Origin: Pseudomonadota bacterium
GTDB lineage: Bacteria; Bdellovibrionota_B; Oligoflexia; Oligoflexales; CAIYRB01
NCBI GenBank assembly: GCA_031416315.1
Contig: JANOTL010000138.1
Location: 98,131-162,130, forward strand
Direction of reading: 5' to 3'
DNA: 64,000 nt
In this document: positions 16,358-57,342 of the stretch, one piece after another
How the letters are laid out: each line of letters opens with the position of its first letter
Numbering within the stretch: the stretch's first letter is position 1
Translations under genes and position numbers: made by a program
Notes under the pieces: model-generated
The model's input: only the letters and a program-made list of their open reading frames with translations
What the model was told of the DNA's origin: nothing
Databases searched by the model: none

Positions 16358-16395
16358 GAGCTCCGCGGCGCCCGCCGCGGAGCTCTTCGTTTCCC
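16358..16395 (+). terminator. Rho-independent terminator after paralog D
   Basis: 13-bp perfect GC-rich stem GAGCTCCGCGGCG/CGCCGCGGAGCTC with a 3-nt loop, followed by TTCGTTTCC. Confidence 0.55.
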
Positions 16396-16438
16396 GCCAT
16401 AAATATAATCCAGTTTATAAACAAACTCTCAGCCAAAG

Positions 16439-16461
16439 AGTCACAGAACACCACGTTCTTT
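16439..16461. promoter_or_regulatory. Second copy of the AGTCACAGAAC-N5-GTTCT palindromic motif, ~60 nt upstream of the TIGR02147 regulator gene
   Basis: GAGTCACAGAACaccacGTTCTT matches 16 of 16 core positions of the 14592-14611 site. Preceded by an AT-rich stretch (16400-16430). Confidence 0.5.
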
Positions 16462-16518
16462 GAGCTTGTGCGCGGCGCGATAATCCGCTAGATTCTGTTT
16501 CGGAGGCGCGAAGTCGGA

Positions 16519-17325
16519 ATGCAAGATCTAGCGATCAACGACTACAAGACCATCCTCAAGGAGGAGCTCGCGTCTCGTTGTCGGCAGAACCCGCGCTACT
16601 CGCTCAGGGCTTTCGCCCGCGACCTGAAGCTCGCTCCCTCGCGGCTTTCCGAGGTGCTTTCTGGGAAGCAAGGCTTGTCGCGCCCAGCCGCCGAGCGCAT
16701 CGCCAAGTCCCTCGGCTACGCGGCGGGCGACATCGAGCGCTTCTGCGACCTAGTCGAGAGCCTGCACGCCCGCTCGAAGAAAAACCGCGATTCGGCTCGC
16801 CTGCGCTTGAAGAAGGTCGGCGGCGATTCCAGCGAGATTCAACTGCAAGCCGACACCGTCAAGCTCATCGCCGACTGGTATCATTTTGCGATTCTCGAGC
16901 TCACCAACCTCGACGGGTTCCGCTCGGAAAGTAAGTGGATCGCGAAGCGGCTCGGAATTTCCGAGTTCGAGGCGCAACTTGCGCTCGACCGCTTGCAGCG
17001 CCTGAACCTCATCACCCGCAAGGGCGACGAGATAAAACTGAACCACCAACATGGTTTTCATGCTTCCAACGTCTCCACCGAGGCGATCAACACCTTCCTC
17101 GGCCAGCTGATGGCGAAGGCGCGCGATGCGCTGTATTTCCAGCAGGTAGAACGCTCGGAGATCAACGCGGAGATCGTCGCGATCGACCGCGCGAAGATCC
17201 CGGAAGCGAAGAAAATGATTCGTGACTTCAGGCATAAATTTTGCAGAAAACTCGGTGAAGATGAGGTCCGCGACGGCCTCTACTGCATCGCGATCCAGTT
17301 CTTCGAGCTGACCGAGAGGGGATAG
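16519..17325 (+). CDS. TIGR02147-family HTH transcriptional regulator (Fibrobacter/Bdellovibrio-type)
   Basis: 268 aa. N-terminal YSLRAFARDLKLAPSRLSEVLSGKQGLS HTH block typical of the TIGR02147 family. Stop is 4 nt before the next gene start. Confidence 0.65.
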   Translation: MQDLAINDYKTILKEELASRCRQNPRYSLRAFARDLKLAPSRLSEVLSGKQGLSRPAAERIAKSLGYAAGDIERFCDLVESLHARSKKNRDSARLRLKKVGGDSSEIQLQADTVKLIADWYHFAILELTNLDGFRSESKWIAKRLGISEFEAQLALDRLQRLNLITRKGDEIKLNHQHGFHASNVSTEAINTFLGQLMAKARDALYFQQVERSEINAEIVAIDRAKIPEAKKMIRDFRHKFCRKLGEDEVRDGLYCIAIQFFELTERG

Positions 17326-17328
17326 ACG

Positions 17329-22161: not shown

Positions 22162-23390
22162 GGCTCCTTGCTCCCCTTGCGCCCGTTGCCGGCGCCGCTC
22201 GTTGCGGCGCGCTCCGCGGCCGCATCTTTCTTCGGTTTCACGACCCTGACGTAGTAGACCGCGCCCCCGATCGCCGCCCCCAGGAAGAGGACGAGCAAGA
22301 CGGGACTGTGCGCGATCATCGAGACCAGCATGGTCACGCCGGAGAGGACGAAGGCGACGAGGCCGAAGATGGCCCCGAGGACGAAGCGGCCGACGGTGGC
22401 GAGGATCGGGATGAAGTCGAGAAGCGTGATCAGGGGGCCAGCGAGAAGGTTGAGGCCGATCCACATGACCGCGAAGCCGACGAAGCGAAAGACCCATGCC
22501 ATGTCGCTCGCGGCTTCCTTGCCGTGCTCGATCATCTGCTTCGGCTGCTTCTTGCCTTCTTCGACCAGGAACTTCTCTTTGCCGTTCTTCGATTTCCAAA
22601 GGCCGAGCTTGCCGCCCGGCATTTGGCGCGCCATGACGCTGAACGGCCCCTGGCGCACGACGCGGTAGCTGACGCGAACGTCGCCGATCTTGTCGCCCGT
22701 AGCCTTCGGATCTTTTTTGAAATAGAGGAGACCCTTGTTGATGACCGCGCCCTTCGTCTCTTTGCCGGAGGCGAGGTTTTCCTTGGTGACCGGAAGGTTC
22801 TCCGTCGGGTAGACCCGCTCCAGAATGGCGGCGCCGTCGAATTTGCCGAGGGAGGACTTCTTCACCATGCGGCGATGCCCCTCGACGGTGAGCGGCGGGT
22901 TCTCGTGACCGGCGCTCATCTGGAAGCTCGCCGACTCGACGCGGCCCGGGGCCCAGCCGAGAGCGTACGTGTATGTAGTCTCGCGCGTGCTGCTGCCGCC
23001 GAGGTTCGACTTGCGGCGCGTCTCGCTCTTCTCCGTCCACTGGTACATCTCGACGACGCGCTCGACGACGAGAAAGTCGCCGGCTTTCAGATAGGGCGCG
23101 TCGCCGATCTTCTCCACTGACTTCAGCGGCCCGCTCGCGAACACGAGCTTGCCGTTGTGCTTCGCCGCGGGCGCCGAGACCTGGGCCTTCTGCACGACCT
23201 TGCGCATCTCCTCGAACGCGCCCTTCTCGGCGATGACGTTGCCCTCGTTCCACCAGAGGATGACGAAGCTGGCGAGGAAGAGCACGAGGCCGATGAGAAC
23301 GCCGATCACGGAGTTGAACAAGCGCGACATGAAGCCGTCGGTCGAGGTCACCGTGACCGAGTTGGCCGCACCCATCAGCTTGTCGAGCAT
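22128..23390 (-). CDS. TMEM43 (DUF1625)-like membrane protein
   Basis: Start trimmed to MLDKLMG (AGGGGG RBS). One N-terminal TM with the LWWNEG motif, large soluble middle, and three C-terminal TM helices, as in TMEM43/LUMA homologues. 3' end overlaps the convergent PP2C gene by 34 nt. Confidence 0.55.
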   Translation of the reverse strand: MLDKLMGAANSVTVTSTDGFMSRLFNSVIGVLIGLVLFLASFVILWWNEGNVIAEKGAFEEMRKVVQKAQVSAPAAKHNGKLVFASGPLKSVEKIGDAPYLKAGDFLVVERVVEMYQWTEKSETRRKSNLGGSSTRETTYTYALGWAPGRVESASFQMSAGHENPPLTVEGHRRMVKKSSLGKFDGAAILERVYPTENLPVTKENLASGKETKGAVINKGLLYFKKDPKATGDKIGDVRVSYRVVRQGPFSVMARQMPGGKLGLWKSKNGKEKFLVEEGKKQPKQMIEHGKEAASDMAWVFRFVGFAVMWIGLNLLAGPLITLLDFIPILATVGRFVLGAIFGLVAFVLSGVTMLVSMIAHSPVLLVLFLGAAIGGAVYYVRVVKPKKDAAAERAATSGAGNGRKGSKEPQPAMDDVAAA

Positions 23391-23606
23391 GTCCGAACCC
23401 CCTGCGTTGCCTGAGCAGAGATTTTTTCGGTGGTAAAAATGCAAACTTTAAGCAAATTGCCAATGATTACCGTATACCCTTGCATTTTCAGGCTCTTCCC
23501 TTAAGATCCGGGCAAGACTTCCCCTGGTGTCACGTCGGTGGAGGTCTGTCCCAAACCCCGGTTTCGACGGGTCCCGCATCCGTGAAGCCACTGGAGGAGT
23601 TCGCCC

Positions 23607-29435: not shown

Positions 29436-31328
29436 TCAAGCCGACCGCTGCAGTGCCGCGCGCGCCTTCGCCAGCTCGCCCGGCAGGTCGACGTCGTCGG
29501 CCTTGAGCTTCCGGCCCATCGACAGGACGAACGCCTCCTCGTCGGCCGTGATCTCGCCGTCGGCGACACAGAGCTTGATCAGGAAATAGAGAAAGTTCCG
29601 GCGCTGGGCCTTGGTGATGAAGCGCACGGCCGGGAGCTCGTGGTTCTGCACCTGTTGACAGATCGCTAGGAGCCGTTCGCGGCCGATGCCGTGCATCGCC
29701 GCGAACTCGCCGAGCAGCGCCATCTCCCGACCCGCCGCGCGCCCGTCGGCCATGACGAGGCGCACGGCGGCCGCGATGGCGTCCTCCGCATCCGGCGTGC
29801 GGACCCGGCGGTCGCCCGTCGCCGTAGCCCCTGCCGCGGTCGGCACGTCGACCCCGACCGAGCGTCCTGAGTAGTGCCGGACGTCGGCCAGGACCCAGTC
29901 CGCGTCGCCGGTATTGAGCAAGGAGCCGCACCGCGAGCACGTTGTGCCGCCCAGCCGTGTCTCCGGCGCTCCGCAGCTGGCGCAGGCGCGCGCCGCGAAG
30001 CCCTCTTTCGCCGACTGCACGCCGGTCCGCCGTACGAGGACGAACTCGTGGTCGAAGGGATGCGTCTCCCGCACCGACGGCTTGATCAAGGCCGGAAGCT
30101 TCGCCGCGACCTCCCGTCCGGACCATTTCACCCGCACGTGCAGCTTGTCGAAGCCGCCGACGTCGCTTTCCACCGAGACCAGGTCGACCGCCCCGACCGC
30201 CGGATCGGCGAAGAAGCGCGTGCCGCCGTCCGCCTGCTTCTCGTAAGCTTTGTGCCTCTTCGTCAGGAAGTCGGGCGCCGCGACGCCGCGAACCGGCAAG
30301 GGCGAGCCTTGCAACTCCGCCGCGCGGAGGCGCCAGAAGATGACCGAGGCGCGGTCCTCGACGTACTGCTCGTTGAATCCCGGATCGCGTGCTGCGATCT
30401 CAGCCAGGCCGGCGACGGCGCCCGCACGCCGTTGCGCCGCGCTCGTCTGCGTGATCTCCGCGAGCACCCAGTCGTAGGACCCGGAGTTCACGATCGCCTG
30501 GCAGTATTCGCAGGCGCCGCGGTCCGAGATTTTGAGGGGCGCGCCGCAGCTCGGGCAGTTGCCGTCGGAGAGACCTTTCGCGCCCGGCTTCGTCCTCACC
30601 TTGGGGCGGCGGAGAAAGCTCCAATACTCGACGAAGCGCTCCGGCGCGTCGGCGCCGTCGACACGGGCCCTCGTGTCTGTGCGCTCGAAGTAGTCGACGG
30701 CCGAGGCCTCGATCTTCACCTCGATCGTGTCGAAGTGCGCGTCGCTCTTCACGCAGCGAAGGTGCACGTTCGTCACGGTGACATCCTTCATCACGTTGCG
30801 CAGCAACCAACGCTGGTGCATCTCGAGCAAGATCTCGAAGCGCTCTTGGACGCCGTCGCTCACCAGGGGCCGGATGCGCTCGAGGCTGCGCGCGCTCCAC
30901 GCCTTCTGCACCGCGAGAAAGGTGTCCCTCACCTTCTTCTTGAACGCCAGCTCGTCGAAGCCCGGGTCGCGGGCCTTCAGGCGATGTAACTCCGGCATAA
31001 GCACGTTCTTCGGGGCCGGCTCTTCGTAGTTTCCCCAATCCGCCTTGGCGCCGCCCCAAACCGAGTCGCCGCGCGAGTAAATGTAGTAGATGACGCCGCA
31101 CACGATGATCGCAACCGGGATTCCTACCGCAGGCTTCCAAATGATGAGCCGGACGAGCATGTAGATGATGTCGATGACCCAGCCGCTGTCGCTGTTGCTC
31201 CCGCCGCCACTGCCGCTATTGTAGCCGCCGCCACCGCCCGCGCGGCCGAACGAGGCCTCGTCCGAGACCATCATGAAGAGCAGGATAAGACTGGCAGCTA
31301 AGGACAGACGACGCACGCTGGCCCTCAC
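29436..31328 (-). CDS. Membrane protein with two Tim44-like domains, two zinc ribbons and C-terminal TerB-like domain
   Basis: Signal/TM plus Gly-rich segment. Two repeats of Tim44-like sequence, each followed by CxxC...CxxC (CPSCGAP..CEYC; CASCGAP..CSRCG). C-terminal TerB-like DGEITADEEAFV. Confidence 0.65.
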   Translation of the reverse strand: MRASVRRLSLAASLILLFMMVSDEASFGRAGGGGGYNSGSGGGSNSDSGWVIDIIYMLVRLIIWKPAVGIPVAIIVCGVIYYIYSRGDSVWGGAKADWGNYEEPAPKNVLMPELHRLKARDPGFDELAFKKKVRDTFLAVQKAWSARSLERIRPLVSDGVQERFEILLEMHQRWLLRNVMKDVTVTNVHLRCVKSDAHFDTIEVKIEASAVDYFERTDTRARVDGADAPERFVEYWSFLRRPKVRTKPGAKGLSDGNCPSCGAPLKISDRGACEYCQAIVNSGSYDWVLAEITQTSAAQRRAGAVAGLAEIAARDPGFNEQYVEDRASVIFWRLRAAELQGSPLPVRGVAAPDFLTKRHKAYEKQADGGTRFFADPAVGAVDLVSVESDVGGFDKLHVRVKWSGREVAAKLPALIKPSVRETHPFDHEFVLVRRTGVQSAKEGFAARACASCGAPETRLGGTTCSRCGSLLNTGDADWVLADVRHYSGRSVGVDVPTAAGATATGDRRVRTPDAEDAIAAAVRLVMADGRAAGREMALLGEFAAMHGIGRERLLAICQQVQNHELPAVRFITKAQRRNFLYFLIKLCVADGEITADEEAFVLSMGRKLKADDVDLPGELAKARAALQRSA

Positions 31329-31448: not shown

Positions 31449-32552
31449 ATGGGCATCCTCGACAAACTCAAGGGCGAATTCATCGACATCATCGAGTGGA
31501 CCCAGCCCACCGATCGGGGAATCCTCGCGTACCGTTTTCCGCGCCATAACAACGAAATCAAAATGGGCGCGAAGCTCACCGTGCGCGAAGGCCAGGCCGC
31601 CGTGTTCATTAACGAAGGCCAGCTCGCCGACGTCTTCAAGCCGGGCATGTACACGCTGCAGACGCAGAACATGCCGATCCTCTCGACCGTCAAGGGCTGG
31701 AAGCACGGCTTTAACTCGCCCTTCAAGGCCGAGGTCTACTTCATCGCGACGGCGCAGCAGCCGGACTACAAGTGGGGCACGACCAACCCGATCATCGCGC
31801 GCGACGCCGATTTCGGCATGGTCAGGATCCGCGGCTTCGGCTCCTACGTCTTCCGCGTCTCCGACCCGGCGCTCTTTATGAAGGAGCTCGTGGCCACCGA
31901 CCCCTGCTTCGAAGATTACGAGATCGACACGCAGCTCCGTCAGGTCATCGTCGCGCGTTTCTCCGACGTCCTCGGCAAATCGAAGATTCCGGTCTTGGAC
32001 CTCGTCGGTAACTACGAGCAGCTCGCGAAATTCGTCCTCGACCTGATCAAGCCGGAGTTCGCCGGCTGGGGCCTCGAGATCGTGAAGTTCTACATCGAGA
32101 ACCTCTCGCTGCCGCCGGAGGTCGAGGCCGCGATCGACCGCCGCACGCAGATGGGCGTTGCCGGCGACCTTTCCAAATACAACCAATTCCAGATCTCGGA
32201 GGCCATCCGCGCCTCGGGCTCGAACCCGGGCGGACTCGTCGGCGCCGGCGTCGGCCTGGGCGTCGGCTTGGGCGTCGCGCAGCAGGTCGCGAGCACCGTC
32301 GGCCAGCTGGGCCAGCCCGCCGCCGGCGCGCCCCCGCCACCGCTCCCGGGCGGCGCGCAGTATCACGTCGCCATCAACGGCCAGGCTTCCGGTCCCTTCC
32401 CCATGGCCACGATCCAGCAGTACGTCGCGCAAGGCCAGGTCAGCCGCGACACGCTCGTCTGGAAGAACGGCATGGCCGAATGGGTCAAGGCCGGAACCGT
32501 CTCAGACCTCGCCTCTTGCTTCCCGGCGACCCCGCCTCCCATCCCCAGATAA
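31449..32552 (+). CDS. SPFH/band-7 domain protein with C-terminal DUF4339 (GYF-like) domain
   Basis: SPFH-like N-terminal 260 aa. GLGVGLGV linker. C-terminal YHVAINGQASGPF...LVWKNGMAEWVKA. Confidence 0.7.
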   Translation: MGILDKLKGEFIDIIEWTQPTDRGILAYRFPRHNNEIKMGAKLTVREGQAAVFINEGQLADVFKPGMYTLQTQNMPILSTVKGWKHGFNSPFKAEVYFIATAQQPDYKWGTTNPIIARDADFGMVRIRGFGSYVFRVSDPALFMKELVATDPCFEDYEIDTQLRQVIVARFSDVLGKSKIPVLDLVGNYEQLAKFVLDLIKPEFAGWGLEIVKFYIENLSLPPEVEAAIDRRTQMGVAGDLSKYNQFQISEAIRASGSNPGGLVGAGVGLGVGLGVAQQVASTVGQLGQPAAGAPPPPLPGGAQYHVAINGQASGPFPMATIQQYVAQGQVSRDTLVWKNGMAEWVKAGTVSDLASCFPATPPPIPR

Positions 32553-32564: not shown

Positions 32565-33680
32565 TTGATCAAATCGAAGCAGAAAAAACGGCATGCGCCG
32601 CGCGTCGCGCGCCTCACCAGTGGTCTCGTGCGCAGCTCGGTGCGCTATTCACGGCGATTCTTCACCAGCGCGCGCCATTTCGGTCCGGCCAAGAGTCATT
32701 TCGACGGGAAAAAGTTCCTCAATCAGGTGCCGACCATGAACTGGTCCGCGCATGTGATGAAGTGGCTGCTCAACCGCAAGGGCGACAGCTGGCCGAAGTG
32801 GCTCGAGTCCGAGCCGGCGCCGAACCCTTCGGCGCGCGTCGACGGCGGCGAGATCGTCATCACGTTCGTCAACCACTCCACCGTCCTGATCCAGACCGCG
32901 GGCCTCAACATCCTGACCGATCCGGTCTGGTCGAACCGCGTCGGTCCCTTCCCGTGGCTCGGCGCGCAGCGCGTCCGCTCTCCCGGCCTGACCATCGACC
33001 AGGTGCCCAAGCTCGACCTCATCCTCATCAGTCACGATCACTACGACCACCTCGACATCCCGACGGTGAAGACTTTTCTCGAGCGCGACCACCCGAGGAT
33101 CTTCTGCGGCCTGGGCGTCACCCGCTCCCTCGAGATCGACGGGGTCAAGGGCGCCGAGGCCCTCGACTGGTGGGATACCGTGGACGTCGCCAACGGCGTC
33201 AGCGCCACCTTCACCCCCTCGCGGCACTTCTCCGGCCGTGGCCTCTACGACCAGGATTCGACCTTATGGGGCGCCTTCGTGGTCCACACGCCCTCGGGCC
33301 CCATCTATTTCGGCGGCGATACGGGCTACGGCCCGCACTTCCGCGAAGTGCGGGAGCAATTCGGCCCCATGGCCGTCGCCCTCCTGCCGATCGGCTGTTA
33401 CGAGCCCCGCTGGTTCATGAAGACCTTCCACATGTCGCCTTTCGACGCGGTCGAGGCGCACGTGGATCTGGAGGCGCACTACAGCGTGGGCGTCCATCTC
33501 GGGACCTTCCGTCTCGGCGACGAGAGCATCGAGCGGCCCGGTCTGGACCTCCTACAGGCCTTGTCCGAGAAGGGCTTGCCCCATTCTTCCTTCGTCGTGC
33601 CGGGCTTCGGCGAGCGCCTCGTGGCCCCGCCCCGCCCTCTCGGCCTCGGGCTCGGGAAGCCCGCCGTGGCGCGGTCCTGA
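32565..33680 (+). CDS. MBL-fold metallo-hydrolase (NAPE-PLD-like)
   Basis: ISHDHYDHLD (HxHxDH) plus downstream His/Asp ligands. Architecture matches N-acyl-PE phospholipase D-type hydrolases. Confidence 0.75.
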   Translation: MIKSKQKKRHAPRVARLTSGLVRSSVRYSRRFFTSARHFGPAKSHFDGKKFLNQVPTMNWSAHVMKWLLNRKGDSWPKWLESEPAPNPSARVDGGEIVITFVNHSTVLIQTAGLNILTDPVWSNRVGPFPWLGAQRVRSPGLTIDQVPKLDLILISHDHYDHLDIPTVKTFLERDHPRIFCGLGVTRSLEIDGVKGAEALDWWDTVDVANGVSATFTPSRHFSGRGLYDQDSTLWGAFVVHTPSGPIYFGGDTGYGPHFREVREQFGPMAVALLPIGCYEPRWFMKTFHMSPFDAVEAHVDLEAHYSVGVHLGTFRLGDESIERPGLDLLQALSEKGLPHSSFVVPGFGERLVAPPRPLGLGLGKPAVARS

Positions 33681-33798
33681 AAAGTTTTACATTTCCCTTA
33701 CATGTTGAAACTCGCGTCCTATCCGGCCTAAGATAGGACTTTGTCCATTATCCCATTGATCGGTTGCGGAAACTCCAGCTCGGGCGTAGGGAGAGGCG

Positions 33799-35004
33799 AT
33801 GCAGTTGCAAGAAATCAGTCGGGGGAACATCCTGCTCACGGGCGCCACTGGTGTCCTCGGGTCCCACCTGCTGAAAGAGCTCCTCGCCTCGACGGACTCC
33901 GACGTCTTTTGCGTCGTCCGGGCGGAAACGATCGAGATCGCGCGCCAGCGCCTCCACGGCTTCCTGCGGGTCTACGACCCTCAGGACAAGCTCTTCCCGG
34001 AGTTTCTGGCGCGCGTGACGCCGGTCCTCGGCGACGTGACGCATCCGACCCTGGGTCTGGACGCGAGCACCTACGCCGAGCTCACGGACTCCATCGACGT
34101 CACCATTCACTGCGCGGCGAACACCAACCTTTTCGCGCGCATGAAGCAGATCGAGCCGATCAACGTCGGCGGCACGCGTAACATCCTCGACTTCGTCCTC
34201 AAGACCCGCGCGAAGAACCTGACCTACATCTCGACCTACACGGTCATGGGCAACAGCTCCTTCGACGCCTCGGTCGTCTTCAAGGAGACCGATCTCGATA
34301 TCGGTCAGACCTTCAAGTACATGACCTACCAAGAGAGCAAGTTCACCGCGGAGAAGATGATCCACGCCGCCGGCAAAGAGCACGGCCTGCAGTGGAAAAT
34401 CATCCGTCCGGGACAGATCTTCGGAGAGGCGCGCACCGGCAACTATCCGCAAGGCCAGACGAACGTCTCCGGGCTCTTCTACGACATCTTCAAGACCGTC
34501 ATCGAGTCGGGCGTCGCGCTCTATGCCGACACCCACTACGACGTCTCGCCGGTCGACTACGTCAGCCGCGCCACCGTCCATTTGGCGATGCGTGAGCCGG
34601 CGACGGCTCAGACCTACCACCTGACTAACCCCGACATTAAGACGTACTCCGACGTCATCAAGATCGTTCGGGGCTTCGGCTACCCGATCGACATCGTTCC
34701 CCAGGATGAATATAAGCAGCTCCTCTTCAACAAGGGGCTCATGGTGAACGGCGCCGAGTACAAGAGCTACACGACCAAGGCGTTCCGCTGGTGGTACACG
34801 CGCGAGGAGTTCGAGTTCGACTTCCGCGAGAGCTGTCGCACCGTCTGCGACGCCACCCGCGCCGTGCTCGAGCCGCGCGGCATTCGTTGCCCCAAGATCG
34901 ACCACGACCTTATCGGCACCTACCTCGAGGTCGGCATCCGCAATCAGTACTTCCCGCAGGCGCCCGTACGCGTCGCGCAGCGCGCCAGCGCTGCCTCGCG
35001 GTAA
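33799..35004 (+). CDS. Fatty acyl-CoA/ACP reductase (thioester-reductase-domain, extended SDR)
   Basis: LTGATGVLGSHLL NAD(P)-binding motif, YxxSK catalytic pair (YQESK). About 400 aa, as in FAR / NRPS R-domain. Confidence 0.75.
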   Translation: MQLQEISRGNILLTGATGVLGSHLLKELLASTDSDVFCVVRAETIEIARQRLHGFLRVYDPQDKLFPEFLARVTPVLGDVTHPTLGLDASTYAELTDSIDVTIHCAANTNLFARMKQIEPINVGGTRNILDFVLKTRAKNLTYISTYTVMGNSSFDASVVFKETDLDIGQTFKYMTYQESKFTAEKMIHAAGKEHGLQWKIIRPGQIFGEARTGNYPQGQTNVSGLFYDIFKTVIESGVALYADTHYDVSPVDYVSRATVHLAMREPATAQTYHLTNPDIKTYSDVIKIVRGFGYPIDIVPQDEYKQLLFNKGLMVNGAEYKSYTTKAFRWWYTREEFEFDFRESCRTVCDATRAVLEPRGIRCPKIDHDLIGTYLEVGIRNQYFPQAPVRVAQRASAASR

Positions 35005-35025
35005 CAAACTCTAAGGACCGACGTC

Positions 35026-36789
35026 ATGATGAAGTGGTGGGGCTGGGGCGACCAGAAGATCACGTTTCCGATGCACGAGAAGCCCACCCTCTGGCCTTGG
35101 ATCAGCAGCAAGCTGAACATGAAATCCGAGCGCGCCACCCCGCCGGTCGCCCGCAAAGACGTCGCGATGCCCCCGCCGACCGTAAATCATGCGTTCCTCG
35201 CGGCCCTGAAAGAGAAGCTGAAAGCCGACCAGATCACGAGCGACGACGAAGCGCGCTTGCACCACTGCTACGGCAAGAGCTATCCGAACCTCTTCCTCGC
35301 CCGTAAGGGCTACATCCAGCAAGCCCCCGACCTGATCGTCTACCCGCGCTCCCACGACGACGTCGTCGCCGTGATCGAGCTCGCGAACAAGCACGACGTC
35401 TGCGTCATCCCGTTCGGCGGCGGCACCAACATCGTCGGCGGCATCGATCCGCGCGAGGACGGCGACCGCATGATCGTCACCTTGCAGATGACCCAGATGA
35501 GCCGCCTCATCTCCGTCGACAAGATGGCGAACACGGCGACCATCGAAGCGGGCGCCCTCGGCCCGAAGCTCGAGCAGGACCTGCAGGCGCAGGGCTACTC
35601 TCTCGGCCATTATCCCGACTCCTTCGAGTATTCGACCCTCGGCGGCTGGCTCGCCACGCGCTCGGCCGGCATGCAGTCCGACGCCTACGGCAAGATCGAG
35701 GACATGGCCGTCTGCATGAAGATGGTCACGCCCGCCGGCACGATCGTCACGCGTCCGTTCCCGGCCTCTTCCGCCGGCCCGGACCTGAACCGCCTGATGT
35801 GCGGCTCCGAAGGCGTCCTCGGCGTCATCACCGAGGCGACGATGCGCGTGCATCCGACGCCGGCGGTGAAGGACTACCGCGGCTTCCTCTTCAAGAATTT
35901 CGAGAGCGGTGTCGTCGCGATCCGCGAGCTCATCGAGAAGAACCACCTCCCGAGCATGATCCGCCTCCAGGACGAAGGCGAGACCGAGCTGGCCTTCAAC
36001 ATGAAGTCCCCGCCGAAGGGCCTGCAAGCCTTCGTCGCGAAGGGCGTCAAAGGCTACCTCAAGCGTACGGGCTACACGAAGCCCGTGATCATGGTCGTCG
36101 GCTGGGAAGGCCTCGAGGAAAGCCTCGTCCACCGCCGCGAAGAAGGCCTCGCGATCCTGAAGAAGCATGGCGGCTTCGCTTTAGGAAAGTCGGTCGGAAC
36201 CTCGTGGTCCAAAGACAAATTCAACATGCCCTACCTGCGCGACTGGGTCATGGACCGCGCCGTCATGTGCGACGTCTCGGAGACCGCGGCCACCTGGACC
36301 AACGTCCTGCCGCTCCACGCCGCGACCACTGCTGCTGTGAAAGAGAAGTTCAAGCAGGAGCCGAGCGGCGACGGCTACGTCGGCTGCCACATCTCGCACA
36401 CCTACGAGACCGGCTGCTGCCTCTACTTCACGTACGCCGCGGTGCAGCGCCCGGGCCAAGAGCTCGAGCAGTACTACGAATACAAGAAGCTCGTGACCGA
36501 CACCTTCATGCGCACGGGCGGAACGCTGTCGCATCACCATGCGATTGGCTACGAGCACATGCCGTGGATGGAGCAGGAAGTTTCGCCCACCGGCGTCGAG
36601 GCACTGCGCGCTCTGAAGGCGAAGCTCGATCCGAAGGGCATCTTGAACCCGGGCAAGCTCATTCCGCAGAAACTCGAAGTCTCGACCGAAGTGGCGAAGA
36701 TTCCGGCGGACGGCATCGAAGGCTGGGGCGCGCAGAGCTTCCAACCCAAGACGCTGCAGACCGCTACTTACGAAGCCGGAAGTGATTGA
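35026..36789 (+). CDS. FAD-linked alkyldihydroxyacetonephosphate synthase (AGPS)-like oxidase
   Basis: N-terminal KWWGWG motif, PCMH-type FAD-binding domain (VIPFGGGTNIVGG), ~587 aa. Confidence 0.8.
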   Translation: MMKWWGWGDQKITFPMHEKPTLWPWISSKLNMKSERATPPVARKDVAMPPPTVNHAFLAALKEKLKADQITSDDEARLHHCYGKSYPNLFLARKGYIQQAPDLIVYPRSHDDVVAVIELANKHDVCVIPFGGGTNIVGGIDPREDGDRMIVTLQMTQMSRLISVDKMANTATIEAGALGPKLEQDLQAQGYSLGHYPDSFEYSTLGGWLATRSAGMQSDAYGKIEDMAVCMKMVTPAGTIVTRPFPASSAGPDLNRLMCGSEGVLGVITEATMRVHPTPAVKDYRGFLFKNFESGVVAIRELIEKNHLPSMIRLQDEGETELAFNMKSPPKGLQAFVAKGVKGYLKRTGYTKPVIMVVGWEGLEESLVHRREEGLAILKKHGGFALGKSVGTSWSKDKFNMPYLRDWVMDRAVMCDVSETAATWTNVLPLHAATTAAVKEKFKQEPSGDGYVGCHISHTYETGCCLYFTYAAVQRPGQELEQYYEYKKLVTDTFMRTGGTLSHHHAIGYEHMPWMEQEVSPTGVEALRALKAKLDPKGILNPGKLIPQKLEVSTEVAKIPADGIEGWGAQSFQPKTLQTATYEAGSD

Positions 36790-37552
36790 TCACCCGCATG
36801 AGCATCGCTAGCCAGCCGCCTGGCAGGATGCGCACGAGGGTGACGAAGAACTTGTTGATGCCGCCGGGTACGGTCAGGCGCTTGCCCCGCACGAGCCCGG
36901 CGTACGCGACCTCGGCCACGGCCTCGGCGCTTAGGCCCTTCCCCTTCTCGGGCTTGCCGGCGCGGCTTCGGAACTCGGTCTTCGTCGTTCCCGGACAGCA
37001 CACCGAGATGGTGATCCCTTGGCTCGCCGTCTCGTTCGCGAGCGCTTCCGAGAACGAGTACATGAACGCTTTGCACGAGCCGTACACGGCCTGGAACGGC
37101 ACCGGCACGAACGAATACACCGAGGCGACGTTGAGAAACCAGCCGCGGCCCCGCGCCAGCATGCGCGGCAGGTAGAGCTTCGTCAGCCCGAGGAAGCACC
37201 CGATCTGCACGTCGACCATCTCGGCCTCGCGCTCGAGCGACGTGGTCTCGAAGGGGCCGTGGACCGCAAAGCCCGCGTTGTTGACGACGATGTCGATCTC
37301 GAGCCCGAGGCGCTGCGTCGCGGCGTAGAGCTCGACCGCCGCGCTCGTCCGCGTCAGATCTTTCACCATGACGTGCGTCTTCACGCCTTGGAACCGCGCC
37401 GCGATCTCGGTTGCGACTTTGTCGAGCGCCGCTTCGTCGCGCGCGACGAGGACGACGTGCGTCCCGCCTTCCGCCAGACGCAAGGCCAGCGCCCGGCCGA
37501 TGCCGGACGAGGCGCCGGTGACCAGCGCCGTTTTCCCCCGCAGCTCGCTCAT
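36764..37552 (-). CDS. Short-chain dehydrogenase/reductase with C-terminal membrane anchor (candidate acyl/alkyl-DHAP reductase)
   Basis: Start trimmed to MSELRGKTALVTGASSGIG (TGxxxGIG). NNAG and YxxxK motifs. Hydrophobic C-terminal helix. Start overlaps the upstream PlsC-like gene by 4 nt. Confidence 0.8.
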   Translation of the reverse strand: MSELRGKTALVTGASSGIGRALALRLAEGGTHVVLVARDEAALDKVATEIAARFQGVKTHVMVKDLTRTSAAVELYAATQRLGLEIDIVVNNAGFAVHGPFETTSLEREAEMVDVQIGCFLGLTKLYLPRMLARGRGWFLNVASVYSFVPVPFQAVYGSCKAFMYSFSEALANETASQGITISVCCPGTTKTEFRSRAGKPEKGKGLSAEAVAEVAYAGLVRGKRLTVPGGINKFFVTLVRILPGGWLAMLMRVINHFRLRK

Positions 37553-38331
37553 GCGAAGTAGCGGTCTTCGAGCGCTTTGATGGTCGTGCCGACCTTGTCG
37601 ACGATCTCTTGGTAGCTCTCGCGACTCTTGCCGCGGGCGACCAGGTCGAGGGGCTGCATCGAGATGCGGAAGCGCGAGCCGGGCGCCGGGTAATTCGAGA
37701 AGGATTCCTGCTTGTCGCCGCGGACGTAGACGCAAAGCACGCGGCAACGGCCGAGCTGCGTCACGAGCTTTGCGACGCCGTAAGTCAGCTTGTCCGGATC
37801 GAAGCGACCGGTGCGGCTACGCTTGCCTTCGGGAAAGATCGTGACGACCTCGCCCGCGCGCAAGAGGTGCAAGCACAGCGTCAGGACGCTGTCCTTGTGC
37901 TCCTTCGAGCCGTCGCGGTGGATGAACACGCACTTCGAGATCAGCGCGATGAATCGGTACAACAGCTTCTTCTTGAAGAAGTCGCCCGCCGGCAGGTTCC
38001 ACGAGAAGCGGTGGAAATGCGACAGGTACCAGAAGTTCGAGCCGAAGGCCCAAATCAAGAGCACCGAATCGATGAACGTCAGGTGGTTCGAGGCGATCAG
38101 GATCGGCCCAGGCTCGCGCGCCAGCTCTTTGAACTGGCGGCGCAACTCGGCCATATTCTCGATCACGTAGCCGGCTTTAAACTTCATCATGCCTGTGCAT
38201 ACCGCATAGAGCGGAATGTGCAGAACGCGGCACAGCAAATGCTGCCAGCGCGCCTGCGCCAGCAGCCCCTTGGACGGGGCGGCGAGGGCCGCGAGGTCGG
38301 CATTCGGTCGCGTGAGATCGGCTTCGGTCAT
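37549..38331 (-). CDS. PlsC-family glycerolipid acyltransferase (candidate DHAP/G3P acyltransferase)
   Basis: NHLTFIDS (HxxxxD) and FPEGKRS motifs of lysophospholipid acyltransferases. Confidence 0.8.
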   Translation of the reverse strand: MTEADLTRPNADLAALAAPSKGLLAQARWQHLLCRVLHIPLYAVCTGMMKFKAGYVIENMAELRRQFKELAREPGPILIASNHLTFIDSVLLIWAFGSNFWYLSHFHRFSWNLPAGDFFKKKLLYRFIALISKCVFIHRDGSKEHKDSVLTLCLHLLRAGEVVTIFPEGKRSRTGRFDPDKLTYGVAKLVTQLGRCRVLCVYVRGDKQESFSNYPAPGSRFRISMQPLDLVARGKSRESYQEIVDKVGTTIKALEDRYFA

Positions 38332-38373
38332 CCGCAGATTTTAGGGCAGGGCGAACAGGCTTGCCACTGATCT

Positions 38374-39723
38374 TTACAAACTGGGATTCCAAAGGCTTAC
38401 GGGTGCGTGCCAGGTGATCACGAGCTTGGCCCACCGACGCGTGCGGTTGTCACCGATGAAGTTGGCGCTCGCCCCGCCCTCGAACCCGCGCATCATATAG
38501 CCGAGGGTGTCCGCGAAATGCGCGTACTGCGGATAGTCCCATGGGAAGTCACGAGTCTTGGCGCCCCGCACGCTTTCCGGAAGGAGCCGGTCCAGGACGG
38601 CGTGCGCTTCGGTGTCGCTGAGGTCACCTTCTAAGCGCTGCACCACCGCGGCATGCATGACCATGTCCGAGTCGAAGCCGACGAGCCATGCTTCGACGTC
38701 GCCTTCGAGCTGCCGGCGCCGCAAAAACCCGCGTTCCTCGGCCTGCGGCGCGATTTTTCCGTAGCGCATCGCCAGGTGCATCGTGATCTTGCGCTGCGTC
38801 ATCACGTTCGGGTGGTCGTTCATGGCGAGGAGCAAGGGCTCGAGCTCGAGGTTGGCATCGCTTGCCGCCTCTTCTGCGATCGCGAGCTCGCCGCAGGCGA
38901 TGAGGCGCTTGATCTCGTCCGGCGAATCGAACATTTCGTGAGCATAGAAGTCGATGCCATTGGAGACGGGGAGCATGTTCGGCTCTTCGCTCAGCCGCTG
39001 CTCCAGGATCTCGAACATCCAGGCCTTGACGTCGATCGCGCCGCGCTCGGCTAAGTCCTCGAGATTGCCATGATAAAAGGCAGCGAGGAAGGGTCCGGCC
39101 ACTCCCGGCCGGGCGATCTCCATGCCCTTGAGTTGCTGCACCAGCTCGTGCAAGGGCGGGTCGAGATCCGACTCGTCGACGTAGAGCTCGCCGAGACCGC
39201 GGGCAGCGCTCGCGCGCGTCAGCACGCCAGCAGCGTTCAAGCCTTCGAGCAGGGCGACTAGTGCTGTGTCGGCATCACTCGCATTGCCCGTGTGTATGAG
39301 GCGCGCCGCCTCGAGCACCTCGGCCGGCACGGTCGGCCGCTGGGCTTCGATCCAGTTCGCGATCTCGGGGGCGTCCTCGACGTACTTCGAATGATCTTGG
39401 ACGAACTTCAGGAGCAGCGACGCATCGCGCGCGACGGCGCGCGTCAGCAGCGGACCGATCGTCGCGAAGCGCCGTCCGCCTTGCTCGACCCAGAGCGAGA
39501 CCCCGACCCAGTGAAACGCGCTGTCGCGCACGGACTCTTCGTCGCGGTCGAGGAGCGCCGCCATCGCGGGAACGAAGCGGTCCCAGAACGACGTCGCGCC
39601 CGTGCGCAGATTATAGACCTGAAGCACCTGCGTCTCGTCGAGCACCCGGCGTGCTGCGACGTCGTCCCGGGACGCGACCGCGCGCTCCAGGCTCTGCAGA
39701 TAGGCCTCTGCCTCGGGACTCAT
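38374..39723 (-). CDS. Hypothetical protein (alpha-helical)
   Basis: Start trimmed to MSPEAEAYLQSLERAV, which overlaps the upstream small membrane ORF by 4 nt. No motif recognised. Confidence 0.45.
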   Translation of the reverse strand: MSPEAEAYLQSLERAVASRDDVAARRVLDETQVLQVYNLRTGATSFWDRFVPAMAALLDRDEESVRDSAFHWVGVSLWVEQGGRRFATIGPLLTRAVARDASLLLKFVQDHSKYVEDAPEIANWIEAQRPTVPAEVLEAARLIHTGNASDADTALVALLEGLNAAGVLTRASAARGLGELYVDESDLDPPLHELVQQLKGMEIARPGVAGPFLAAFYHGNLEDLAERGAIDVKAWMFEILEQRLSEEPNMLPVSNGIDFYAHEMFDSPDEIKRLIACGELAIAEEAASDANLELEPLLLAMNDHPNVMTQRKITMHLAMRYGKIAPQAEERGFLRRRQLEGDVEAWLVGFDSDMVMHAAVVQRLEGDLSDTEAHAVLDRLLPESVRGAKTRDFPWDYPQYAHFADTLGYMMRGFEGGASANFIGDNRTRRWAKLVITWHAPVSLWNPSL

Positions 39724-40094
39724 TTCCCGGGTCGGCTCTGGTGCGCAGACACCAATATAATCAGTCCCTTGAGCGCATCGAGGAAGAGGTTGTCGAGGCG
39801 TCCGTAGAGGACGCAGAGCGCCGTCCCGATGCCGATCCACCACGCGCCGAGAATGTAGCTCAAGGTCCAGCCCACAGCCTCGTTCTTGAGCACCATGCGG
39901 AGAGCCAGGCCGCAGATGATCGCAACGAAGAGCAGGAGCCAACTCGCCACGTGCCCGAGGAAGAGCGTGTCCGGCGAGGCTTGCACTTTAAAGAGCGAGA
40001 GCGCCAGCTCCGGCATGAAGAAGCCACCGATAGGGAACAGGCATTCGATCACGAACGCGAGGCCGAGGATGCCGATCAGGACTTTCCGCGCCAC
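39720..40094 (-). CDS. Small 4-TM membrane protein
   Basis: 124 aa, four hydrophobic helices. First gene of the minus-strand operon ending with the SDR. Confidence 0.4.
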   Translation of the reverse strand: MARKVLIGILGLAFVIECLFPIGGFFMPELALSLFKVQASPDTLFLGHVASWLLLFVAIICGLALRMVLKNEAVGWTLSYILGAWWIGIGTALCVLYGRLDNLFLDALKGLIILVSAHQSRPGK

Positions 40095-40182: not shown

Positions 40183-41289
40183 TTGCGACTCTGGCGCGCA
40201 CTCGGCGTCATCATCGGACTCGGGATCGCGCTTTCGGCACAGGCCGCCGAGCCGACCGGAAGGCCGCTCGTCTTCATCCACGGCATCAAGGGGGCCGAGC
40301 TCGTCGACGCGCAAGGCGAGGTCGTGTGGATCGCCGCCGCTCAAGCCCTCGGCTTCTCGACGCCGCAGCTCGCTCTTGAGACGCGCTTCGTCGACGGCAA
40401 GCAGCCGCTCGACGCGGTGAAGCCGCACGGCGTCCTCGCTAAAATTTCAATTATTCCAGGCATCTTCTCCGTCAACGTCTACGGCCCGTTCCTCGAAGCG
40501 GCCCTGGCCTCGGGACGGCCGTTCCATCCTTTCGCGTACGACTGGCGCCGCGACAACAACGAGACGGCGAAAGAGTTCGCGGCCTTCCTCGAAGAGCTCG
40601 TGAAAAAATACGCGCCGCAAAAACCCGTGGTCGTCGCGCACAGCATGGGCGGACTGATCACGCTCGCGGTTGTGAACGAGCGGCCGGAGCTCTTTGATCG
40701 CGTCGTTTTCGCCGGCGTCCCGTTCCGCGGCGGCGTCGGTTTCCTGAGCGACTTGACCGTCGGCGAGGCGGCCGGGTTCAACGACGAGATCCTCAGCCGC
40801 GAAGTGCTCGCCACGTGCCCTTCCGTTTTCACCCTCTTCCCGCTGGTCCACGAGGCGGTCGTCGACGCTGGGCAGAAGCCCGTCGCCGTGGACTTCTACG
40901 ACGCGGAGAGCTGGAAGCGGTTTCGGCTCGGGCCTTATGCCGAAAGGACGCCGCCGGAAACCTACGCCATCTTCTTGCGCGAGACCTTGAGCCGCGGCAA
41001 AGCCTTCCGCCAAAGGCTCGTCCCCAAACCGGGTGCGGTTTTCCCGCCGATCCTAATCGTCACGAGTAAGGCCCACAAGACGCTGGTGAAGGCGCAGATC
41101 GCCGGCCCGAAGAGCGAGAACGGCGTCGACTTCGAGTCCATGCCCAAGGCCGACGGCGATGGGCGCGTCGCTTACGAGACGTCGCTGCCGCCTACCGGCA
41201 TCAACCCGGTTCGCATCATGACGACCGCGAACGATCACTCCGAGCTCTTGAACGATCCGGAAGTGATCGGGAGCGTCCTGAAGTTCTAG
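40183..41289 (+). CDS. Secreted alpha/beta-hydrolase lipase (LCAT/PGAP1-like)
   Basis: Signal peptide. FIHGIKG and AHSMGG nucleophile elbow. Architecture of lecithin:cholesterol acyltransferase-like lipases. Confidence 0.65.
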   Translation: MRLWRALGVIIGLGIALSAQAAEPTGRPLVFIHGIKGAELVDAQGEVVWIAAAQALGFSTPQLALETRFVDGKQPLDAVKPHGVLAKISIIPGIFSVNVYGPFLEAALASGRPFHPFAYDWRRDNNETAKEFAAFLEELVKKYAPQKPVVVAHSMGGLITLAVVNERPELFDRVVFAGVPFRGGVGFLSDLTVGEAAGFNDEILSREVLATCPSVFTLFPLVHEAVVDAGQKPVAVDFYDAESWKRFRLGPYAERTPPETYAIFLRETLSRGKAFRQRLVPKPGAVFPPILIVTSKAHKTLVKAQIAGPKSENGVDFESMPKADGDGRVAYETSLPPTGINPVRIMTTANDHSELLNDPEVIGSVLKF

Positions 41290-57332: not shown

Positions 57333-57342
57333 GGGAAACGCG

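Follow-up and report, generated by a model that had tools for sequence, protein, structure and literature searches.

In Myxococcus xanthus, AGPS is encoded by MXAN_1676 in a three-gene operon together with a FAR-GNPAT fusion (MXAN_1675) and a member of the NAD-dependent reductase family (MXAN_1674) (PMC9131029, PMC13012113), and deletion of MXAN_1676 lowers the ether lipids of this organism, of which the AGPS route supplies only a minor part (PMC9131029). The elbA-E cluster of the same species encodes ElbD, in which an acyl-CoA synthetase, an ACP, a reductase and an AGPAT-like acyltransferase are combined for alkyl-ether lipid synthesis (PMC9131029); this cluster lacks an AGPS. The eukaryotic peroxisomal pathway is made up of FAR1/2, GNPAT, AGPS and DHRS7B, and the mammalian alkyl-DHAP reductase, DHRS7B, is an SDR-family gene (PMC9471318). 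In the anaerobic bacterial routes, which depend on the plasmalogen synthase PlsA/PlsR or the glycerol ester reductase Ger, an ester of a ready-made diacyl lipid is reduced directly (PMC13012113, PMC11868695).

Organization of the locus

The locus compared with these systems lies in a 64-kb window, the term used here for the whole stretch of DNA that was analyzed. An initial annotation had described a eukaryote-like ether lipid gene set in two convergent operons, and all seven of its ORFs were recovered with the positions and domains it had given, the HMM searches it had proposed matching NAD_binding_4, FAD_binding_4, adh_short and PF01553. The features are as follows.

32565-33680, plus strand: NAPE-PLD-like metallo-beta-lactamase-fold (MBL) hydrolase (Lactamase_B_2)
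33705-33734, plus strand: sigma-70-like promoter match in the MBL-FAR gap; weak, 9/12 positions
33799-35004, plus strand: FAR, R-domain reductase (NAD_binding_4, TIGR01746)
35026-36789, plus strand: predicted AGPS (FAD_binding_4 and FAD-oxidase_C)
36764-37552, minus strand: classical SDR (adh_short)
37549-38331, minus strand: acyltransferase, AT (PF01553)
38338-38367, minus strand: sigma-70-like promoter match directly upstream of AT and downstream of the HEAT-repeat gene; weak
38374-39723, minus strand: HEAT-repeat protein, 449 aa, between MEM and AT
39720-40094, minus strand: MEM, 124-aa membrane protein (hydropathy, conserved synteny)
40183-41289, plus strand: LCAT-like alpha/beta-hydrolase (Pfam LCAT, Abhydrolase_6)

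The two operons do converge, with the 3′ ends of AGPS and SDR overlapping by 26 nt, and stop/start ATGA overlaps join AT to SDR and MEM to the HEAT-repeat gene, which suggests co-translation in the minus-strand operon. FAR-AGPS facing MEM-AT-SDR in convergent orientation makes up the conserved core. This gene set very probably makes ether-linked membrane lipids, and the locus is likely to specify an AGPS-dependent synthesis of 1-O-alkyl (plasmanyl-type) glycerolipids that needs no oxygen and is built from separate genes.

AGPS and the two reductases

The FAD oxidase, previously described as AGPS-like, is, judging from its sequence, a genuine alkyl-dihydroxyacetonephosphate synthase (AGPS), the flavoenzyme that forms the ether bond. 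Its closest PDB match is Dictyostelium AGPS (2uuu; E 5.6e-132, 41% identity over 507 aa) followed by guinea-pig AGPS (4bby; E 1.9e-97), while the nearest solved oxidase that is not an AGPS, a putative oxidoreductase, gives an E-value of only 8e-34. Residues Y467, H503-H505 and R313 align with Tyr578, His615-617 and Arg419 of the guinea-pig enzyme, and the catalytic Tyr, HHH and Arg, together with KWWGWG, are invariant in 15 bacterial AGPS homologs, the N-terminus of the window AGPS reading MMKWWGWGD. It is not a D-lactate/glycolate oxidase, the result that would have counted against the initial annotation; AGPS is by far the nearest family. The best NCBIfam match is GlcD (162 bits, far under the cut-off of 568), because NCBIfam has no AGPS model. 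The label "eukaryote-like" is misleading, since close relatives of this AGPS are encoded in at least 577 representative bacterial genomes, the nearest being labeled Bdellovibrionota or Pseudobdellovibrionaceae, and wide occurrence of AGPS in MAGs has been reported (PMC11868695).

FAR matches NAD_binding_4 (E 6.5e-54) and contains the motifs TGATGVLG and YQESK, and its TIGR01746 (thioester reductase) score of 225.4 bits, over the cut-off of 213.35, bears out its earlier designation as a fatty acyl reductase with a thioester-reductase domain. It is proposed to be a stand-alone fatty acyl reductase of the thioester-reductase (R-domain) type and the source of the fatty alcohol. Among solved structures the MxaA terminal reductase (4u7w; E 6e-50) is its nearest relative, an enzyme that delivers a primary alcohol by four-electron reduction; R-domain reductases are also able to stop at the aldehyde, and the alcohol is the predicted product here. 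FAR orthologs lie directly 5′ of AGPS in loci L002, L003, L007, L012, L014, L017, L022, L028 and L081, and elsewhere the alcohol-supplying slot is occupied by a FAR1-type reductase (L008/L009), a FAR-Sterile-acyltransferase fusion beside AGPS (L010) or a FAR-AMP-binding fusion (L035), the pattern to be expected if the function and not the gene is conserved.

The SDR (adh_short, E 2.9e-44; motifs TGASSGIG, NNAG and YGSCK) is proposed to be the acyl/alkyl-DHAP (1-alkylglycerone-3-phosphate) reductase, and in about 20 loci, drawn from at least five groups with different labels, an ortholog (41-56% identity) is immediately adjacent to AGPS. It had been described as a C-terminally membrane-anchored SDR. 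The family assignment stands but the anchor does not, as no 19-residue window of the SDR reached transmembrane level in a hydropathy scan, and its tail is therefore at most amphipathic.

Conserved gene neighborhood

Genes within 1.5 kb of AGPS were counted in 80 bacterial AGPS loci, where an SDR was found in 60/80, spread over many groups, a PF01553 acyltransferase in 31/80 and a FAR in 12/80. FAR-AGPS is also convergent with AT-SDR in L002, L003, L028 and L006, AGPS is convergent with SDR-AT in the cultured Fluviispira (F. multicolorata 33A1-SZDP) and Alsobacter (A. soli SH9) as well as in Silvanigrella MAGs, and AT and SDR are fused in one relative (L028). Co-localization is far beyond chance. 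FAR, AGPS, AT and SDR form a conserved neighborhood, which supports the initial annotation, with fusions in L028 and L010, and this fits a scheme in which FAR activity and acyl-DHAP formation are followed by AGPS and then by keto-reduction. Tight linkage is not obligatory, since in L022, the closest relative by synteny, the 4.7 kb that follow AGPS show neither an SDR nor an AT.

Comparison with known ether lipid systems

A pathway of this kind is already known in myxobacteria, and what is new here is the different set of helper enzymes around AGPS. The premise that AGPS is unlinked in myxobacteria, on which novelty had been claimed, is wrong because the MXAN_1676-1674 operon links AGPS, FAR-GNPAT and reductase (PMC9131029, PMC13012113). 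In that operon, as in the window, AGPS is accompanied by fatty-acyl reductase and acyltransferase functions and by a member of the NAD(P)-dependent reductase family, so that all of the early "peroxisomal" steps are encoded together. In contrast to MXAN_1675, as it is described, the reductase and acyltransferase of the window are separate genes of different subfamilies, FAR being an NRPS/PKS-type R-domain without a Sterile domain and AT a 260-aa divergent PF01553 protein instead of a GNPAT-like domain. The candidate for keto-reduction belongs to the classical and not the extended SDRs, which is how it differs from MXAN_1674 by description, and the window genes form two convergent operons with a conserved 4-TM protein (MEM) and an LCAT-like hydrolase in addition. 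The pairing of a reductase with an AGPAT/PlsC-like acyltransferase, which is small in the window, is shared with elbA-E, whereas the window enzymes are discrete and lack the AMP-binding and ACP domains by which ElbD is described.

With the eukaryotic peroxisomal pathway the window shares the key enzyme (41% identity to Dictyostelium AGPS), the logic of alcohol supply, acyl-DHAP, exchange and keto-reduction, and an SDR-family gene, in the window a candidate, for the last reductase (PMC9471318). However, neither FAR nor AT is an ortholog of its eukaryotic counterpart (FAR1 and GNPAT, respectively), the genes are clustered, and no organelle is involved. No vinyl-ether desaturase (PEDS1/CarF) is visible in the 64-kb window, and alkyl ethers rather than plasmalogens are therefore predicted. 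The anaerobic PlsA/PlsR and Ger routes would have the same class of end product, ether-linked glycerolipids, but the AGPS chemistry of the window is unrelated to them, and no PlsA/PlsR or Ger homolog was seen in the 64 kb.

Accessory genes

MEM has three to four hydrophobic/transmembrane segments, as judged by hydropathy, and no family match in Pfam, NCBIfam or PADLOC. It has 32 homologs (45-94% identity), is situated directly upstream of AT in L001, L081, L086, L087 and L088, and its place at the head of the MEM-AT-SDR operon is conserved, which strengthens the suggestion that this small membrane protein is a component of the system. The same suggestion for the 449-aa protein had to be abandoned. 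This is a HEAT-repeat protein that has no match in Pfam or NCBIfam, occurs only in the window and in one 94%-identical relative, and is absent from every other operon copy examined, while its distant homologs are in unrelated gene contexts. Its gene is a recent insertion between MEM and AT in this lineage only, and probably a passenger rather than a pathway enzyme.

The LCAT-like hydrolase (Pfam LCAT, E 4.9e-8, plus Abhydrolase_6) has an AHSMGG nucleophile motif and a signal-peptide-like N-terminus and is probably exported. As in the window, it forms a divergent pair with MEM in L001, L081, L086, L087 and L094; in L002 and L003 its gene is found close to the cluster. This conserved neighbor is located just outside the range of the initial annotation and was missed there. 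The NAPE-PLD-like hydrolase (Lactamase_B_2, E 8.9e-39), the start codon of which is uncertain, has human NAPE-PLD as its best solved relative (4qn9; E 9.3e-61, residues 19-350). Its identity and position were correctly recognized, but not its linkage, as a copy (62% identity) is in the same position only in the closest relative, L022, and the gene is peripheral and associated with the cluster at most loosely.

Proposed pathway and alternatives

In the pathway envisaged, the R-domain reductase (33799-35004) would make the fatty alcohol from a fatty acyl-CoA or acyl-ACP thioester, and the PF01553 acyltransferase (37549-38331) would produce 1-acyl-DHAP. AGPS (35026-36789) would then swap the acyl group for the alcohol, forming the ether bond, and the SDR (36764-37552) would reduce 1-alkyl-DHAP to 1-alkyl-sn-glycerol-3-phosphate, which would enter ordinary phospholipid synthesis. 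The claim of a full peroxisomal route in discrete genes is supported in part; AT is not of the GNPAT type.

AT (PF01553, E 9.3e-15) has the motifs NHLTFIDS (HX4D) and FPEGKRSRTG, which are invariant among nine orthologs. Its only family-level matches are to PlsC/AGPAT-type models, and no solved relative was detectable by sequence or by profile. In hhalign comparisons with the FARAT acyltransferase domain the window-type AT scored 64 and verrucomicrobial AT1 217, and none of the AGPS-linked acyltransferases compared by profile is farther from that domain than the window type. Assignment of AT as a GNPAT ortholog or a FARAT-type enzyme was rejected on the basis of this score and its small, divergent sequence. 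AT is a small divergent PF01553 glycerolipid acyltransferase for which the role of DHAP acyltransferase is proposed; given its distance from the GNPAT/FARAT type, its specificity for DHAP is something that we purely infer.

There is some chance, although a rather small one, that AT is instead an sn-2 acyltransferase that converts 1-alkyl-G3P to 1-alkyl-2-acyl-G3P, acyl-DHAP being supplied by a housekeeping acyltransferase elsewhere and the pathway being otherwise the same. The PlsC-like size and family matches of AT and its distance from the FARAT domain would suit such a role, the AT-SDR fusion in L028 would fit equally well by joining consecutive steps (reductase, then sn-2 acylation), and verrucomicrobial operons run AT1-AGPS-SDR-AT2 and thereby show that such clusters can include a second acyltransferase that acts after the reductase. 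However, housekeeping PlsC could handle alkyl-G3P, and acyl-DHAP is, to our knowledge, not a normal bacterial intermediate, so that what AGPS would most need beside it is an acyltransferase dedicated to DHAP. In addition, hhalign places the window-type AT slightly nearer to AT1 (108) than to AT2 (86), and AT scores under the cut-off of the PlsC model (TIGR00530; 40.8 versus 102.95).

The two remaining alternatives depart further from the proposed synthesis of membrane ether lipids. It is improbable that the gene set serves in remodeling or salvage of lipids acquired, for example, from prey or the environment, or in making neutral alkyl lipids or wax-like storage or signaling compounds and not bulk membrane ether phospholipids, with the two hydrolases as integral parts. 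AGPS, the reductase and FAR are biosynthetic enzymes for which we know of no catabolic role, and the NAPE-PLD-like gene, although directly upstream, is linked only in L022. What speaks for this use is the conserved LCAT-like hydrolase with its signal-peptide-like N-terminus, the Bdellovibrionota or Pseudobdellovibrionaceae labels of the nearest relatives, and the build-up of alkyl ethers as the neutral lipid TG-1 in M. xanthus development (PMC9131029). That the co-localization is coincidental, with the FAD oxidase a 2-hydroxyacid/D-lactate-type dehydrogenase and the two operons functionally unrelated, is effectively refuted. The subthreshold GlcD match would agree with it, as would L084, where a distant MEM homolog adjoins a genuine GlcD-like oxidase, but that oxidase is 28% identical and lacks the HHH, whereas the window enzyme retains the AGPS-specific HHH loop, the catalytic Tyr and KWWGWG, about 98 orders of magnitude in E-value separate AGPS from any other solved oxidase, and synteny and fusions recur in many lineages.

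Promoter-like sequences

The number of sigma-70-like sites, two versus 1.2 ± 1.1 in shuffles, is not above expectation. Both are located directly 5′ of conserved gene pairs.

Gene Organization of the Cluster

The window has a G+C content of ∼65%, and within it no tRNA genes or Rfam families were found. Codon-position GC together with ORF analysis of the flagged range placed seven genes exactly where the initial annotation had put them; that range ended one gene short, leaving out the conserved LCAT-like hydrolase at 40183-41289. The minus-strand genes converge on the FAD-linked oxidase, with the 3′ ends overlapping by 26 nt, and ATGA stop/start overlaps join the acyltransferase to the SDR gene and the gene of the small membrane protein to that of the 449-aa protein. 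The genes are:

32565-33680 (+), NAPE-PLD-like metallo-beta-lactamase-fold protein, best solved relative human NAPE-PLD (E 9.3e-61)
33799-35004 (+), stand-alone thioester-reductase-domain protein (FAR), 401 aa (NAD_binding_4; TIGR01746)
35026-36789 (+), FAD-linked oxidase (AGPS), 587 aa (FAD_binding_4 and FAD-oxidase_C, Pfam)
36764-37552 (-), classical SDR (adh_short, E 2.9e-44)
37549-38331 (-), PF01553 acyltransferase (AT), 260 aa (PF01553 model at 55 bits)
38374-39723 (-), 449-aa protein, no family match
39720-40094 (-), membrane protein (MEM), 124 aa, three to four hydrophobic segments
40183-41289 (+), LCAT-like alpha/beta-hydrolase, divergent from MEM, beyond the range first annotated

Identity of the Oxidase, Reductase, and SDR

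Judged from its sequence, the oxidase, a two-domain flavoprotein of the VAO/PCMH type, is a genuine member of the AGPS family (EC 2.5.1.26). When the PDB was searched with it, Dictyostelium AGPS ranked first (E 5.6e-132; 41% identity over 507 aligned residues) and guinea-pig AGPS second (E 1.9e-97), well ahead of the first match outside the family, a putative oxidoreductase (8e-34), and of D-lactate dehydrogenase (∼2e-30) and glycolate oxidase (∼3e-27). HMMER alignment equates Y467 with guinea-pig Tyr578, H503-H505 with His615-617 and R313 with Arg419, which we take to be functional residues of the guinea-pig enzyme, with Tyr578 catalytic and the histidines forming the HHH loop. None of these residues varies among 15 diverse bacterial homologs that were aligned, and the same holds for the N-terminal KWWGWG. 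A grouping with lactate and glycolate oxidases, which the initial annotation had named as the outcome that would speak against AGPS, was not seen, because the PDB ranking, the aligned catalytic residues and their invariance are all of the AGPS type. The window enzyme would be expected to replace the acyl chain of acyl-DHAP with a fatty alcohol.

The reductase was correctly assigned from the outset to a thioester-reductase domain: its TIGR01746 score (225.4 bits) exceeds the curated cut-off (213.35), NAD_binding_4 is present, and TGATGVLG and YQESK fit the TGxTGxxG nucleotide and YxxxK catalytic motifs. With the R-domain of the MxaA terminal reductase as its closest solved relative (E 6e-50), it belongs to the thioester-reductase (R) domain family. 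The alternative of a eukaryote-type FAR1 or “male sterility” reductase fails, as the Sterile domain (PF03015) was not matched in the Pfam search and the solved FAR 7eoz is only a weak match (E 1e-9).

The SDR carries the motifs TGASSGIG, VNNAG, and YGSCK, which conform to the classical SDR pattern (TGxxxGxG, NNAG, S-Y-K), and its best matches in the PDB are generic SDRs (E ∼1e-27). We infer that it is an acyl/alkyl-DHAP reductase (EC 1.1.1.101), the role filled by DHRS7B and Ayr1, because its adjacency to AGPS is conserved. The membrane anchor that had been ascribed to its C-terminus is the one detail of the initial observation that found no support, since the segment falls below transmembrane-level hydropathy.

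Linkage of AGPS Across Bacterial Genomes

Homologs of AGPS occur in at least 577 representative genomes, and the closest relatives among the matches listed are from metagenome-assembled genomes (MAGs) labeled Pseudomonadota, Bdellovibrionota, and Pseudobdellovibrionaceae. A total of 80 bacterial loci around AGPS homologs were searched with the window's proteins: 60 had an SDR no more than 1.5 kb from AGPS, 31 had a PF01553 acyltransferase at that distance, and 12 had a FAR. The arrangement in which FAR-AGPS converges with AT-SDR recurs in three Pseudomonadota/Pseudobdellovibrionaceae MAGs (loci L002, L003, and L028) and in Alsobacter soli (L006), and AGPS converges with SDR-AT in Fluviispira multicolorata and in Silvanigrella and Oligoflexia MAGs (L005, L008, and L009). 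SDRs resembling that of the window (41-56% identity) accompany AGPS in Elusimicrobia, Planctomycetota, Sulfotelmatobacter, Alphaproteobacteria, and a Bdellovibrionota-like group.

The comparison provides strong evidence that the genes around AGPS act together, because one component is swapped for unrelated enzymes of the same chemistry and because components are fused. The reductase slot is filled in L008 and L009 by a 496-aa NAD_binding_4 FAR, in an Elusimicrobia locus by a 763-aa FAR-Sterile-acyltransferase fusion (FARAT; L010:12467-14758, minus strand) that adjoins AGPS and SDR and has the architecture of MXAN_1675 and of many eukaryotic proteins, and in a Gemmatimonadales locus by a FAR-Sterile-AMP-binding fusion directly upstream of AGPS (L035:7580-9943, plus strand). 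In Verrucomicrobia and Ignavibacteria (L030, L047, L050, and L072, ∼5700-13200) a same-strand operon encodes an MMPL transporter, an HMG-CoA-reductase-like protein (333 bits to that family), a first acyltransferase (AT1), AGPS, SDR, and a second acyltransferase (AT2). Enzymes of the HMG-CoA reductase type carry out a four-electron reduction of a thioester to an alcohol, and for this reason the gene may be a further stand-in for the step that forms the fatty alcohol. In L028 the acyltransferase and SDR are fused in a single 543-aa ORF (11615-13246) that is convergent to FAR-AGPS.

Several of these loci carry additional lipid-related genes. The L028 cluster (8808-14006; uncultured Pseudobdellovibrionaceae MAG, CAYNEF010000026.1) also includes a divergent gene (13314-14006) for a 230-aa PF10520 “Lipid_desat” protein of the CarF/PEDS1 family (E 2.7e-59), so that this locus may encode, in one cluster, an entire aerobic plasmalogen pathway outside the Myxococcota, and a partial PF10520-like match lies 3′ of AGPS in L027. 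A protein of the FA_hydroxylase family, of which the alkylglycerol monooxygenase family is part, and a membrane protein of the FA_desaturase family are encoded just upstream of FAR-AGPS, partly divergently, in L014 (6546-8624), and ORFs with similar N-termini occupy this position in L007 and L012; the three loci are from Burkholderiales, Oxalobacteraceae, and Steroidobacteraceae MAGs. In L003, the interval that separates the LCAT-like hydrolase from FAR (6513-8363) contains genes for a 143-aa membrane protein, a weakly FA_desaturase_2-like protein and a chalcone-isomerase-like (fatty-acid-binding-type) protein, as defined by a domain scan of L003, and ORFs with similar N-termini are found at the matching positions in L002 (1012-2416). 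The AT operon in both loci is headed by a protein of ∼800 aa with 7-9 TM segments, and a sulfatase domain was confirmed in the L002 copy.

The Acyltransferase

The acyltransferase is the weakest link of the proposed pathway. Only the generic PF01553 model matches it, and no PlsB or GPAT model does. Its HX4D and FPEGxRS motifs are present and invariant, its score on the PlsC model TIGR00530 (40.8) is below the cut-off of 102.95, and its profile does not align significantly with Thermotoga maritima PlsC (5kym, E 0.86); PDB searches by sequence or by profile gave no significant match to any solved structure. Membership in the GNPAT/FARAT clade of DHAP acyltransferases was rejected, given the small size of the protein (260 aa) and an hhalign score of 64 against the FARAT acyltransferase domain of L010, to which the verrucomicrobial AT1 scores 217. 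Its own scores against AT1 (108) and AT2 (86) are higher, and by profile-profile comparison it falls in a PF01553 subfamily of its own. The pathway has this enzyme generating acyl-DHAP ahead of AGPS, and yet it could equally be an sn-2 acyltransferase acting after the SDR, an order of events that the AT-SDR fusion of L028 would suit as well.

Accessory Genes

Homologs of MEM number 32. The gene directly precedes that of the acyltransferase in L001, L081, L086, L087, and L088, and an LCAT-like alpha/beta-hydrolase is divergent from it, as in the window, in the first four of these loci and in L094, a relative with 94% identity. Both genes are therefore conserved parts of the neighborhood in the window's clade. 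The proposal that MEM is a new pathway component is favored by its conserved place upstream of the acyltransferase and weakened by homologs located away from AGPS: for one of them the next gene is an SDR and AGPS is absent within 8 kb, and another, more divergent homolog (L084) is 3′ of a GlcD-like oxidase that was ruled out as an AGPS, being 28% identical and without the HHH loop. The NAPE-PLD-like gene accompanies FAR-AGPS in L022 only.

The 449-aa protein, also put forward initially as a pathway component, has a very different distribution. Its gene follows MEM in L094 and is missing from every other copy of the operon, and a word-index search of 5.8 billion proteins returned only the protein itself. 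A full HMMER search gave 148 distant relatives, many of which score as HEAT repeats, and the closest homologs are encoded between toxin-antitoxin pairs or amid unrelated genes. The most plausible reading is that the gene entered the operon recently and has no part in the pathway, given that it is lineage-restricted and has its HEAT-repeat relatives in unrelated contexts. In two loci (L089:5427-9329 and L092:1924-4183) such homologs have a conserved neighbor that carries no annotation (386 aa or 118 aa), and these gene pairs are located between ParE- and PIN-type toxin-antitoxin pairs or adjoin a holin-family gene. PADLOC gave no match for these loci, and their setting suggests an accessory or mobile context.

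Proposed Pathway and Comparison With Known Systems

The most likely function of the cluster is AGPS-dependent synthesis of 1-O-alkyl glycerolipids. From the family identities, catalytic residues, and linkage established here, we infer the substrates and products of every step: the reductase would supply the fatty alcohol, the acyltransferase would form acyl-DHAP, AGPS would convert this to alkyl-DHAP, and the SDR would reduce it to 1-alkyl-G3P. No PF10520 (CarF/PEDS1) desaturase was found among the scanned ORFs of the window or by tblastn of the window with the L028 desaturase, and so the genes visible in the window predict alkyl ethers rather than vinyl ethers.

The cluster belongs to an already known kind of system with a different cast of enzymes. 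In Myxococcus xanthus, an operon encodes AGPS (MXAN_1676), a FAR-GNPAT fusion (MXAN_1675) and a protein of the NAD-dependent epimerase/dehydratase family (MXAN_1674), which contradicts the initial premise that the myxobacterial AGPS is unlinked, and disruption of MXAN_1676 slightly lowers ether lipids (PMC9131029; PMC13012113). Homologs of AGPS have also been reported from metagenomes, where they span many bacterial phyla (PMC11868695), and from sponge symbionts (bioRxiv 10.64898/2026.06.23.733905). Literature searches gave no link of Silvanigrella or Fluviispira to ether lipids and no match to the exact phrase for a bacterial AGPS gene cluster. In contrast to the fused genes of M. xanthus, those of the window are discrete, with an NRPS/PKS-type R-domain instead of a FAR1-type reductase and a novel small acyltransferase instead of GNPAT. 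The SDR is classical, as in mammals (DHRS7B, PMC9471318), whereas that of M. xanthus is extended, and the window cluster adds two conserved genes, those of MEM and the LCAT-like hydrolase.

The gene set first described was therefore observed and its interpretation borne out in part, for AGPS and its linkage, while the unlinked myxobacterial enzyme and the 449-aa candidate were given up. On a more far-reaching reading, the cluster would represent a distinct and hitherto undescribed form of the bacterial AGPS pathway: the R-domain reductase, the new PF01553 subfamily and the classical SDR would all be non-orthologous to their eukaryotic and myxobacterial counterparts, and a dedicated 4-TM protein and an exported LCAT-like acyltransferase/lipase would be functional components. 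Taken as a whole, we regard this reading as tentative and rather doubtful.

Implications for Bacterial Ether Lipids

Ether lipids serve as biomarkers and palaeoclimate proxies, and there is active debate over how eukaryotes came by their ether-lipid and plasmalogen pathway. To our knowledge, the M. xanthus AGPS is the only bacterial one with genetic data, and its role there is minor. According to a recent GTDB survey that searched with eukaryotic enzymes, FAR and GNPAT among them, the complete set of four pathway enzymes occurs in just 73 bacterial genomes, of which 61 are Myxococcota (PMC13012113). Clusters of the window type would escape such surveys because their FAR and acyltransferase are non-orthologous, and gene-based estimates of aerobic ether-lipid capacity in bacteria are probably too low. 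If so, and given the PF10520 desaturase of L028, a sister lineage, the capacity for aerobic ether lipids, possibly including plasmalogens, could be considerably broader than thought, which is relevant to the proposal that the eukaryotic pathway came from myxobacteria. The compact cluster of separate genes, with equivalents in the cultured strains Fluviispira multicolorata 33A1-SZDP (L005) and Alsobacter soli SH9 (L006), offers a clean, testable system for reconstituting a bacterial AGPS route, one in which the still-missing bacterial DHAP acyltransferase and alkyl-DHAP reductase could be identified, the new small membrane component tested, and genome-based estimates of aerobic ether-lipid makers recalibrated. 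A close AGPS is encoded by Silvanigrella aquatica as well. Should the cluster be inactive or redundant, it would merely be one more set of homologs.

Other Features of the Window

Three consecutive plus-strand ORFs (55233-59889; 699, 299, and 559 aa) have good coding statistics and no Pfam family. A minus-strand run (5532-11045) encodes a radical-SAM/DUF4070 protein (9222-11045), a 788-aa sulfatase-domain protein (6859-9225), and an OpgC-type acyltransferase_3 protein (5532-6701); the sulfatase-domain protein was considered as the counterpart of the L002/L003 AT-operon head and rejected at only 24% identity. The region 13120-18936 contains four DUF4360 paralogs (13120-13746 and 13767-14384, minus strand; 14670-15311 and 15521-16306, plus strand), adjoined by plus-strand genes for an HTH/DUF4423 protein (16519-17325) and a Kelch beta-propeller protein (17329-18936). 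Domains familiar chiefly from eukaryotes are found in TMEM43-like, Tim44-like plus TerB, and SPFH plus GYF proteins (22128-23444 and 29436-31328, minus strand; 31449-32552, plus strand), with which the NAPE-PLD-like, LCAT-like, and Kelch proteins share the window.
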